Below, in pieces: positions 2,030-3,763 of a stretch of 64,000 nucleotides of DNA (within the stretch, counting starts at the first letter, position 1; every line of letters begins with the position of its first letter). The stretch is from an uncultured Bacilli bacterium. Lineage in GTDB: Bacteria > Bacillota_I > Bacilli_A > RF39 > UBA660. Where the stretch lies: assembly GCA_934098455.1 (NCBI GenBank), contig CAKOOU010000002.1, positions 2,570 to 66,569 on the forward strand, written 5' to 3'. Below the pieces are notes generated by a model, which made no database searches, was not told the origin of the DNA, and was given only the letters and a program-made list of their open reading frames with translations. Both the position numbers and the translations under genes were made by a program.

Positions 2030-3763
2030 TTACAATAATGATTTATTTACTAGTAATGACTTTATTTTTTTTACTCTATAAAAATTATTTATATAATCTA
2101 AATTATCTTTTTCTGTCAAAGACATTAAACTATACAAATCTATATCTAACTTAAACTGTTCTTCATTCTCATGAATATCACTAAATTCTATTAATAATCC
2201 CTTTATTCCATTATATAAATTAGAATATTTAATATTACCATGACATATAGCATTTCTAATACCATTTATTACAGTATAAGAATAAAATATATTATTATCC
2301 TTTAATAAAATTTCATTTAAATTATCTAATTCTTCTTTTTTTATTTTATATAATTCCATTATTTTACTTATATTATTATTAATATCTTCTAATATATTTT
2401 TTAATTTAATAACTATATTATTATATTCTACATTTTTAGTTTCATTATATTTTTTTAAAACATTATTATATTGATTTTTAACTTTTTCACGTTTGTTTTC
2501 TAATTCATTTATCTTTTTAACACATGATTTAATAATTTTTTCTAAATCTTGTAATCTATTATTTTTACCAATTTCATATAATTTATTTTTTTTAACTTTC
2601 GGAATTATTTCGCTTAAATCAATTTTAGAAAAATCAATATCATTACTATTACATTCGAATACTTTATTATTTTTAAATAATTTTTCTAACGGATAACAAT
2701 ATACAAAATATATCATTGTTACCATTAAACTTAACACAAATTCTTCATCTGGAAAAGCCATTACATACCAAGGGTCTTTTTCTCCAATCTTATCTAGGTA
2801 TGTTTTATAATCGTATATTTTAGCAGATAACATTTCACACAATATATTTCTTCCTGTGGCAAAGGAATATTTTACTTGATTATTATTTATCTTATTTTCC
2901 ATATATACATATATTTTTTCAGTTGCTGTATAAAGTATTTGCTTTAAATGCTTTTTATTATTTTCATATAAATCATTAGAAAAATTTATTCTTCGTTTTA
3001 TCTCTTCAAACTCTTCTTCATTTACTTTATACATTTTATGTTTTTTTATTTCAACATAATAATCATCTGCAAACATTTTCTTTATCATATTATCATAATC
3101 CTTGTCAGTATAATTATAATTATTTTCTACTAACTCACGAAGCATCATAGTATATTTAAAAAAAGTATCTTTTTCACTACTTGATAATTCTTTACCATCT
3201 TTTCTTTTAAAAATATATTCATTCAAAGATAAACTTCTTAAAAAATTATATATATCTTTATCAGTTTTTATAATACTATCAACATTAGAAAATGACTTAT
3301 TAACCATTTGATATTTAATATATTTCTTTCCCTTAAATCTATAATTTAATCCATTAGTAAGCGTAAAATAATAATTTAAAAATTGATATAAATTAACTTT
3401 ACAATCCTTATCATTTATCCTAAAATATATATTATCATTTTTTAAATAATAATCACCATGAGCTAACTTATTTCTAATAGATGCAAATATAGTTGCCCCA
3501 TTTTTATCTTCATCAATGTTTTCTATATCTAAATATAATAAAATATTTTCTAATTGAGTATCTGACATTTTACTTTCATAATCAACATCAGTTATATTTT
3601 CTACCATACTTTCTTTATTAATTAATAAATCTAAAACAACAATACCAAATAAAGAATTTATTATATCTTCTCTATTTAATTCTGTTCCAAAAAAAATATT
3701 ATTAAATAAATTCATTAAACTATTATTAATTTTTATAGATGTATTTATTCTTTTTTCTTCCAT
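2030..3763 (-). CDS. Twin-HEPN protein (two RNxxxH motifs); putative RNase or abortive-infection-like effector, family unassigned
   Basis: 577 aa. Motif 1 is SIRNKLAHG (R97/H102, nt 3458-3475). Motif 2 is GIRNAICHG (R503/H508, nt 2240-2257). A Lys/Asn/Glu-rich coiled-coil-like stretch lies between them. No signal peptide or TM segment. Confidence 0.6.
   Translation of the reverse strand: MEEKRINTSIKINNSLMNLFNNIFFGTELNREDIINSLFGIVVLDLLINKESMVENITDVDYESKMSDTQLENILLYLDIENIDEDKNGATIFASIRNKLAHGDYYLKNDNIYFRINDKDCKVNLYQFLNYYFTLTNGLNYRFKGKKYIKYQMVNKSFSNVDSIIKTDKDIYNFLRSLSLNEYIFKRKDGKELSSSEKDTFFKYTMMLRELVENNYNYTDKDYDNMIKKMFADDYYVEIKKHKMYKVNEEEFEEIKRRINFSNDLYENNKKHLKQILYTATEKIYVYMENKINNNQVKYSFATGRNILCEMLSAKIYDYKTYLDKIGEKDPWYVMAFPDEEFVLSLMVTMIYFVYCYPLEKLFKNNKVFECNSNDIDFSKIDLSEIIPKVKKNKLYEIGKNNRLQDLEKIIKSCVKKINELENKREKVKNQYNNVLKKYNETKNVEYNNIVIKLKNILEDINNNISKIMELYKIKKEELDNLNEILLKDNNIFYSYTVINGIRNAICHGNIKYSNLYNGIKGLLIEFSDIHENEEQFKLDIDLYSLMSLTEKDNLDYINNFYRVKKIKSLLVNKSLL

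Follow-up and report, generated by a model that had tools for sequence, protein, structure and literature searches.

HEPN ribonucleases (RNases) cleave RNA independently of metal ions through the arginine and the histidine of a short motif (PMC3710099). Their fold is defined as a four-helix up-down bundle with an insert between helices 2 and 3, in which the Rx4-6H motif lies at helix 3's end, running into the next loop, and helix 2 carries a conserved acidic residue (PMC3710099). An active HEPN site needs two such units, which may belong to the same chain, as in Cas13, or to different chains, as in HepT and ApeA (bioRxiv 10.64898/2026.03.20.713152). The intrachain arrangement of twin HEPN units is the hallmark of Cas13, and, according to a recent proposal, Cas13 descends from compact fusions of two defence-type HEPN RNases. 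In particular, a study of Cas13an postulates an unguided 'fused twin-HEPN' stage between AbiD/F-type RNases and RNA-guided Cas13, and names, within AlphaFold-DB, twelve clusters whose members form a HEPN dimer inside one molecule, only two of which are associated with CRISPR (PMC12165695). Thus, CRISPR-less single-chain twin-HEPN proteins are a recognised, uncharacterised category. The gene described here lies in a 64,000-nucleotide (nt) stretch of contig CAKOOU010000002.1, from an uncultured Bacilli bacterium; this whole stretch is called the window, and all window coordinates count from its first letter. Its product of 577 amino acids (aa) very probably carries two HEPN-type units, as judged from its motifs and its predicted structure, and its family is classified among the HEPN RNases, specifically with the CRISPR-less single-chain twin-HEPN proteins that are already in the literature.

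A regular-expression scan for R-x4-6-H finds exactly two matches in the protein, RNKLAHG and RNAICHG, at precisely the positions where an earlier note on this DNA had placed two RNxxxH motifs. Histidine occurs just five times in the protein, and among 20,000 composition-preserving shuffles a fraction of 0.00015 contains at least two RNxxxH motifs by chance. The same note had held that variation of the two R/H pairs among homologues would speak against its reading; the pairs are clearly conserved. In a family alignment of 46 full-length members, with a mean column identity of 28%, H102 of motif 1 is present in all 46 and R97 in 42, with lysine in the other four, while N98 and G103 are kept in 39/46 and 44/46, respectively. 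In motif 2, both R503 and H508 are found in 46 of 46 members, accompanied by N504 (40/46) and G509 (43/46). The whole of IRNKLAHGD is invariant in an alignment of the 18 closest homologues, and an apparent exception, at the related locus L019, reads LRGTIAH, which is still Rx4H. By mean pairwise identity, the helices that bear the motifs are the top segments of the protein (49% and 61%), whereas the values are 17% for a helical hairpin in the second half of the chain, 18% for residues 140-265, and 17-21% for the hairpin and the middle region together. The C-terminal core (residues 487-577) is the best-conserved region of the family, with 35% over its length and 61% around its motif. Moreover, hhalign comparison of the two motif units matches one to the other in register (E 1.7e-5), over the motif core only.

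A confident AlphaFold model of the full chain, built with the family alignment, has a mean predicted local distance difference test score (pLDDT) of 87.8 and a predicted template modelling score (pTM) of 0.83; when the N-terminal 140 residues are modelled alone, the pLDDT is 84.1 and the secondary structure is the same as in the full-chain model. In the predicted unit 1, helices H1 (residues 2-25) and H2 (31-53) are followed by an insert (54-88), by H3 (89-101), by a beta-meander (105-124) and by H4 (125-139). R97 is placed in the last turn of H3 and H102 just beyond the end of the helix, and H2 ends with K50-E51, kept in 43/46 and 44/46 members, respectively, the other two having D in place of E51. 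In the predicted unit 2, the hairpin doubles as the elongated helices 1' (394-442) and 2' (445-486), the latter ending at D485 (32/46 members), while R503 lies in the last turn of H3' and H508 just past the helix end. The model of unit 1 fits all four features of the HEPN definition, and that of unit 2 fits it in the order and lengths of the helices; the acidic residue of helix 2 (E51 and D485) and, in unit 1, the insert between helices 2 and 3 are also present. Between the two units, the middle region has conserved patches at F351/Y357-P358 and D377-F378..L381..P388 and is a candidate sensor or RNA-binding module.

Several results weigh against this assignment. Searches of the 577-aa protein against Pfam, NCBIfam and PADLOC matched no HEPN model. 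Across the 46 members, PF18736 (pEK499_p136 HEPN) was matched by two only, with E of at least 0.017 and below the gathering threshold, and CARF_HEPN or RTasHEPN matches were isolated to single members. The PF18736 and PF23519 labels precomputed for homologues were not reproduced, P0011 and P0018 having no PF18736 match at E <= 1. For the protein and the 46 members taken together, nothing beyond coiled-coil noise and isolated matches below threshold came from Pfam, NCBIfam, PADLOC and PHROGs. The hairpin had only coiled-coil matches in the PDB and Pfam, and searches of the PDB by sequence and by family profile likewise returned coiled coils only. Foldseek comparison of the whole model with the PDB and BFVD yielded no HEPN structure and mostly helical-hairpin and ABC-transporter noise, and the isolated N-terminal domain gave no significant match (best E 0.76, template modelling score at most 0.3). 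In effect, the assignment of the HEPN fold rests on motif and predicted topology, not on superposition. Nevertheless, the Cas13an study reports that Foldseek and hidden Markov models miss HEPN relationships, and that Cas13an is invisible to such searches when these start from other Cas13s (PMC12165695). Because the same blind spot is described there, the lack of a Foldseek match for this family is taken as speaking neither for nor against a HEPN fold. As regards the checks that the earlier note had proposed, the model thus shows a HEPN-like four-helix topology around both motifs although Foldseek found no HEPN structure, and an outright match to a well-characterised non-nuclease family did not emerge.

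Table 1. Positions of the gene, its predicted domains, its motifs and nearby signals in the window.
Feature	Position	Strand	Details and basis
Coding sequence (CDS) of the twin-HEPN-motif protein	2030..3763	(-)	ATG start, 577 aa, stop codon 2030-2032; open reading frame (ORF) list and translation, full-length homologues of 550-600 aa, dN/dS 0.07-0.24
N-terminal HEPN-like unit, residues 1-139	3347..3763	(-)	AlphaFold models of full chain and isolated domain
Catalytic motif 1, R97-N-K-L-A-H102	3458..3475	(-)	Context IRNKLAHGD; R97 = nt 3473-3475, H102 = nt 3458-3460
Middle region, residues 140-392	2588..3346	(-)	Mixed alpha/beta, then helical (model); searches gave no match to a family or fold
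Lys/Asn/Glu-rich hairpin of two long antiparallel helices, residues 394-486	2306..2584	(-)	Helices 394-442 and 445-486 (model), pLDDT 90-97
C-terminal HEPN-like core, residues 487-577	2033..2305	(-)	Model: H3' 492-507, strands 511-542, H4' 543-576
Catalytic motif 2, R503-N-A-I-C-H508	2240..2257	(-)	Context INGIRNAICHGN; R503 = nt 2255-2257, H508 = nt 2240-2242
Ribosome-binding site GAAGGG	3770..3775	(-)	6 nt 5' of ATG; read from sequence
Sigma-70-type promoter candidate	3789..3816 (read 3816-3789)	(-)	TTGACA-16-TGtTAAAAT, TG-extended; consensus match only
TspO/MBR remnant	3987-4217	(+)	76-aa ORF; matches only profile positions 42-94 of 145

Other properties of the gene had also been read correctly at the outset. 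The Lys/Asn/Glu-rich helical stretch is real, in that it is modelled as the long hairpin, and no convincing transmembrane segment was found in the protein, whose maximum Kyte-Doolittle mean over 19 residues (1.57) falls in a buried predicted helix. The gene is indeed more AT-rich than its surroundings, with 18.5% GC against 25.0% for the window, which places it in the lowest 2.7% of equal-sized windows. Its putative promoter, proposed as near-consensus, is the top-scoring site within 1300-4400 (11/12 plus TG); in this AT-rich DNA, however, promoter-like sites are no more frequent than in shuffled sequence (32 found, 39.9 expected). This candidate would give the gene a leader of about 20 nt.

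By contrast, the description of the protein as an orphan does not hold. A word-indexed search of 5.8 billion proteins found 18 homologues (28-55% identity), all unnamed and all metagenomic, and phmmer found 63 matches among 1.84 billion cluster representatives, nearly all of 550-600 aa and aligned from end to end. A profile of the full family added four further unnamed relatives, and a profile of the N-terminal domain alone retrieved only fragments of the same family and pulled in no annotated HEPN family. A scan of one genome per GTDB species gave 17 loci, all in metagenome-assembled genomes (MAGs) of 23-27% GC, labelled as uncultured Bacilli, Bacillales, Bacillota or 'Tenericutes'; the hosts are AT-rich uncultivated gut Bacilli/'Tenericutes'. 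The family is unannotated and could not be placed in Cas13, Abi_2, ApeA or pEK499_p136 by the comparisons made here. A literature search on intramolecular, tandem or dual HEPN together with abortive infection found no paper.

The family resembles Cas13an and Cas13b-type effectors in being a single chain with an Rx4H motif near each end. Its 577 aa correspond to the upper bound of the Cas13an range, 429-577 aa (PMC12165695), and the statement in the earlier note that the smallest known Cas13 proteins are well above 700 aa is therefore outdated. The HEPN2 motif of Cas13an (LRNKIAHGGFFW, IRNQIAHGGWIW) is similar to both motifs here, with the pattern I/L-RN-x-h-A-H-G plus an aromatic residue. By contrast, the HEPN1 motif of Cas13an is RH/N-x-LEH/KD rather than RNKLAHG, and the protein described here differs in its 90-residue helical hairpin, in its middle region and in showing no sign of a guide RNA. 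In pairwise hhalign comparison with Cas13an HEPN2 fragments, only 15-22 motif columns align (E about 1e-5), and Cas13 was not found among the PDB sequence-profile or Foldseek matches. The catalytic signature is thus common with Cas13an at the level of sequence, and membership of the Cas13 family is not demonstrated past the motif. Consequently, the Cas13-like layout that had been proposed for the protein stands as regards two motifs near opposite ends, and the relationship goes no further than the 15-22 residues of the motif. By analogy with Cas13, a composite site formed from two HEPN units is the likely chemistry.

Two other groups of proteins are instructive. Among the CRISPR-less HEPN-dimer clusters are G7MBT4 (Clostridium sp. 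DL-VIII, 467 aa) and A0A1Y6ANL6 (Bacillus mobilis, 509 aa) (PMC12165695). Like the family described here, these are Bacillota single chains of about 450-600 aa with two proposed intrachain HEPN domains, without CRISPR and with an uncharacterised function. However, within the partial sequences available for comparison, their motifs are different and they do not resemble the present family, which is known from metagenomes only and is not among the clusters that the Cas13an study lists. The second is ApeA, a stand-alone protein of about 600 aa with the motif RNKITH and with no antitoxin or partner gene, which is inactive until its sensor region binds a trigger and which needs two HEPN units (bioRxiv 10.64898/2026.03.20.713152). 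ApeA carries a single HEPN domain, at its C-terminus, and homodimerises, in contrast to the protein described here, each chain of which has two motif units, and the ApeA N-terminal and HEPN_Apea models of PADLOC and Pfam match neither the 577-aa protein nor any of the 46 members. Even so, ApeA offers the best functional analogy to a possible control of the 577-aa protein.

The reading that we prefer, and hold with moderate confidence, is that the protein is an unguided, autoinhibited, stand-alone single-chain twin-HEPN RNase with a putative role in defence or stress. Its N- and C-terminal HEPN units, with a middle domain of some 250 residues and the helical hairpin of some 90 between them, would operate without CRISPR RNA and would pair with each other, most simply within the chain as in Cas13 and otherwise between chains. 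Pairing would join R97/H102 and R503/H508 into a composite, metal-independent RNA-cleaving site. The middle domain and the hairpin would hold the enzyme inactive until a signal, such as a ligand or RNA derived from infection or stress, is received, and cellular or invader RNA would then be cleaved. A control logic like that of single-gene HEPN defence proteins such as ApeA is proposed because no guide, antitoxin or partner is seen. Within this reading, support is far stronger for catalysis than for the biological role.

The window was compared, for arrays and gene neighbourhoods, with 31 related loci that come from at least 17 species and extend up to +/-10 kb. Neither TRF nor a spacing-aware 16-mer detector revealed a CRISPR-like array in these loci or in the window, and no cas genes were found in any neighbourhood examined; in this the family is unlike Cas13. 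A match to the CRISPR-DR44 Rfam model at 3610-3637 is treated as chance, since it is a single sub-threshold copy (23 bits vs 35, E 4.4) inside the CDS. In the window, the gene is flanked by a MarR gene (identified by Pfam), a partial ABC transporter and the TspO remnant; TspO is intact (147-150 aa) at the same position in loci L001 and L015. Several clade-specific arrangements can be distinguished. In the first, the gene lies between TspO and MarR-ABC-ABC (the window, L001 and L015; L019 retains the MarR-ABC side). In the second, exonuclease VII / a SpoIVB-type peptidase stands on one side of the gene and Ffh further off on the other. In the third, the gene stands between a gene for a 1252-aa metallophosphatase-like protein and T-box-gatCAB, and in the fourth an EssC-type type VII secretion block, a Zn-phospholipase C-like gene, Abi_2, HtrA and (CorA) precede it and an amidase follows. 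Within one clade, 6-7 species-level genomes keep the gene at a common locus, and within others 3-4 do so, whereas its position differs between clades. No partner gene that is kept from clade to clade was found in the 31 related loci, and the arrangements have no neighbour in common. The absence of a CRISPR array, antitoxin or RNA partner that had been remarked upon for the window thus extends to these loci.

The one cluster that does recur, C2 (proteins of 577-669 aa), is encoded close to the gene in five contexts. It was weighed as a possible conserved partner and rejected, as it is a multi-copy secreted family that has a signal anchor, lacks a HEPN motif and occurs at four other places in the window. 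The abundance of this secreted family in these genomes accounts for its recurrence beside the HEPN gene. C2-type proteins are secreted or surface proteins of 250-710 aa, in which variable bodies rich in Thr, Ser and Asn stand behind an N-terminal signal anchor that is nearly identical among them (MNRKxKIIxSVTGIxLVLLxLxGLTYAYxLTxIxGNTN). The copies in the window lie at 15129-17258, 24663-25418, 47685-49610 and 52558-53508, all on the (-) strand, and copies in relatives are at 9869-11809 in L004, 7944-9923 in L008, 16189-19752 in L018 and 104-1837 in L019; the copies listed by contig look-ups have no Pfam label on record.

In the distant clade, a large upstream gene that had been taken for PolC is judged from its sequence to encode an FHA-EssC type VII secretion ATPase. 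A type VII-like block lies 5' of the twin-HEPN gene in L021-L023, L026, L027 and L030 (for instance at 297-8595 in L022) and contains an FHA and triple-FtsK EssC of 1522 aa, a YukD-like protein of 84 aa and two WXG-like proteins of about 72 aa. It is followed by the Zn-phospholipase C-like gene and then by a bona fide Abi_2 gene (Pfam E 6e-40). The latter, with 81-95% aa identity between species and a ratio of nonsynonymous to synonymous substitution rates (dN/dS) of 0.02-0.05, is among the best conserved of its neighbourhood, which is unusual for an abortive-infection gene. T-box leaders were found at 9816-10020 in L013 and at 11111-11291 in L010 (Rfam 119.5 and 99.2 bits, respectively), that of L013 directly 3' of the HEPN gene and ahead of gatCAB. 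In the window, an Rfam scan gave no family at gathering score, and neither a tRNA, a riboswitch nor a ribosomal-protein leader, despite the presence of the ribosomal-protein superoperon. Finally, three consecutive small ORFs with prepilin-type N-termini (e.g., MNKKGFVLMETIVVIVVV) at 56641-58168 (-) suggest a putative ComG/type IV pseudopilin cluster.

As regards the evolution of the twin-HEPN gene, its dN/dS is 0.07-0.24 in three closer syntenic pairs, compared with 0.02-0.06 for core neighbours such as EssC. As all regions of the gene stay below 1, the gene is functional and under purifying selection. It is nevertheless among the fastest-evolving in its neighbourhoods, with 43-47% identity where EssC has 78-80%. 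Between the window and the syntenic L001, the twin-HEPN proteins share 54.6% aa identity and TspO and MarR about 63%, while the flanks share 90-98% (PBP 97.8%, PFL 92.9%). At the DNA level, 1400-3800 forms a trough of 59-72% identity, against 90-97% to its right, and the boundary near 4200 is sharp. Besides the HEPN gene, this hyper-divergent patch (1400-4200) takes in MarR and the TspO remnant, in chromosomes that are otherwise near-identical. The pattern suggests a much older allele at the locus, perhaps brought in by recombination or allele replacement, rather than decay, because dN/dS is below 1. An arms race specific to the gene was considered as the cause of the trough, an idea that is weakened by the equal divergence of MarR and TspO and by a dN/dS below 1 in every region. 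Alleles that have lost function also occur naturally. L008 differs from L016 by one base in 1,966 nt, which changes TAT to TAA at codon 460 (Y460*, position 11380 of L008) so that unit 2 is lost, and a second, independently assembled sample (L009) yields an identical 459-aa product. In addition, a frameshifted family copy occurs at 9893-11297 of L028, in a different MAG, where it could be an assembly error. Thus, the twin-HEPN gene can be lost in nature and is dispensable in some strains.

A role in defence is suggested, weakly, by fast evolution, by the locally hyper-divergent allele and by the natural loss-of-function alleles only. Several observations count against it. The window is core chromosome, with a ribosomal-protein superoperon (about 30-44 kb), an mraZ-rsmH-PBP cluster, Lon and RNase J, and the gene keeps its locus across several species within clades. 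No copy of the family turned up among 2.9 million viral contigs, in 50,697 phage genomes or on 72,556 plasmids. Moreover, the divergence from L001 is shared with MarR and TspO and is not specific to the twin-HEPN gene, and no region of the gene has a dN/dS above 1. The view that this is a typical accessory context is doubtful for these same reasons of core location, within-clade synteny and lack of phage, plasmid and viral copies, although the MarR/ABC and decayed TspO neighbours that it cited are there. Likewise, of the compact twin-HEPN RNase acting as a defence effector that had been proposed, the two units agree with motif, conservation and topology, while defence stays at the level of suggestion.

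The main alternative, a serious rival although less probable than the preferred reading, is that the protein is a lineage-specific housekeeping or regulatory RNase, which processes or degrades ribosomal, transfer or messenger RNA in reduced-genome gut Bacilli. Las1, which acts in the maturation of ribosomal RNA, provides a eukaryotic parallel, being a HEPN nuclease with a coiled coil that is encoded by a chromosomal, non-mobile gene and serves as a housekeeping example; unlike the protein described here, this eukaryotic enzyme has a single HEPN in each chain and depends on the kinase Grc3 as partner, and sequence similarity of the family to Las1 was not detected. Such a role would fit the location of the gene in the core chromosome, near the ribosomal-protein superoperon and division genes, and its retention at one locus within clades. 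It would also fit the lack of phage, plasmid and viral-contig copies and of any antitoxin or partner, the strong-looking promoter candidate of its own, and purifying selection in all regions. It is harder to reconcile with the nonsense allele that lacks the C-terminal unit in two samples and with the frameshifted copy in a third genome. The rapid local evolution of the gene, its narrow distribution (63 clusters among 1.84 billion proteins), its variable position between clades and its unusually low GC also speak against housekeeping.

A reading closer to the preferred one, and rather unlikely as it stands, is that the family is a free-standing Cas13-like twin-HEPN immune RNase, which might sense infection through its middle domain and hairpin or through a trans-encoded RNA. 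It is improbable, on the other hand, that the protein is an AbiF-like or type III-like toxin of a toxin-antitoxin or abortive-infection system, neutralised by an unrecognised small RNA or protein. The family has in common with Abi_2/AbiD/AbiF proteins the RN-x-x-A-H signature and a Firmicutes-rich distribution, the wider pattern of I/L-RN-x-h-A-H-G plus an aromatic residue being common to Abi_2/AbiD/F and Cas13an HEPN2, and the Abi2/Swt1 HEPN clade also holds HEPN dyads. In C. difficile, a cis-encoded RNA with abiF motifs neutralises AbiF (PMC12373285), and in some loci small unannotated ORFs lie 3' of the gene, such as one of 136 aa in L004 and one of 67 aa in L010. However, these ORFs have no family match and are not conserved between clades. 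The abiF RNA (RF03085) was not found in window positions 1-8000 at E <= 10, nor in the whole window and seven homologous loci at gathering score. In many loci, the intergenic gaps beside the gene measure a mere 26-100 nt; they are not conserved and have no space for a conserved flanking RNA, and the leader in the window, of about 20 nt, would also be short. Abi_2 proteins differ, moreover, in having about 300 aa, one HEPN and the abiF RNA, and in lying often on prophages or plasmids, whereas the present family is chromosomal, without such an RNA and with no prophage or plasmid context found. The Pfam model of Abi_2 (PF07751) matches none of the 46 members at E <= 10, yet it finds the control gene L022:6663-7616, one of the true Abi_2 genes that lie two genes 5' of some family members, at E 6.3e-40. 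Comparison by hhalign with true Abi_2 proteins from the same genomes gave E 0.05, in the motif only, which is not significant.

It is likewise very unlikely that the protein is an inactive nuclease in which the R/H motifs serve ligand or RNA binding, or structure, within a coiled-coil scaffold. The lack of a significant match to any HEPN model or structure, the large coiled-coil element that dominates the database matches and the replacement of R97 by lysine in 4/46 members speak for such a scaffold. Nevertheless, the arginine and histidine of unit 2, the histidine of unit 1, the adjacent N and G and the acidic residue of helix 2 are conserved as in active HEPN domains, whereas inactive ones typically lose such residues (Table 1, PMC3710099). 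Least probable of all is an RNA-guided Cas13-like effector whose CRISPR array or other guide RNA is encoded elsewhere in the genome: the Cas13b-type placement of its motifs, its size within the Cas13an range, the motif-level similarity to Cas13an HEPN2 and the suggestion of the Cas13an authors that RNA-guided capability may predate Cas13 (PMC12165695) are set against the lack of arrays and cas genes in the neighbourhoods compared, the CRISPR-DR match that is a single sub-threshold copy within the CDS, and the lack of Cas13 sequence or fold similarity beyond the motif.

The finding is a moderately interesting lead rather than a discovery, and it bears on the origins of Cas13 and on single-gene immunity in uncultivated gut bacteria. 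The family adds a well-delimited bacterial example of twin-HEPN proteins, with a constant architecture, invariant catalytic residues and no association with a guide, a partner or mobile elements, and it does so in abundant but uncultivated human-gut Bacilli, where the gene lies in the core chromosome. If the protein were a housekeeping RNase, a bacterial twin-HEPN enzyme would be at work in RNA metabolism, which would be unusual. If it were instead an unguided immune twin-HEPN RNase, the family would be a living example of the fused stage postulated to precede RNA-guided Cas13 and a new single-gene defence system of gut Bacilli. If, as in the preferred reading, it is an autoinhibited sensor-effector RNase, it would constitute a new single-gene immune or stress module and a point of comparison for how Cas13 gained RNA guidance.

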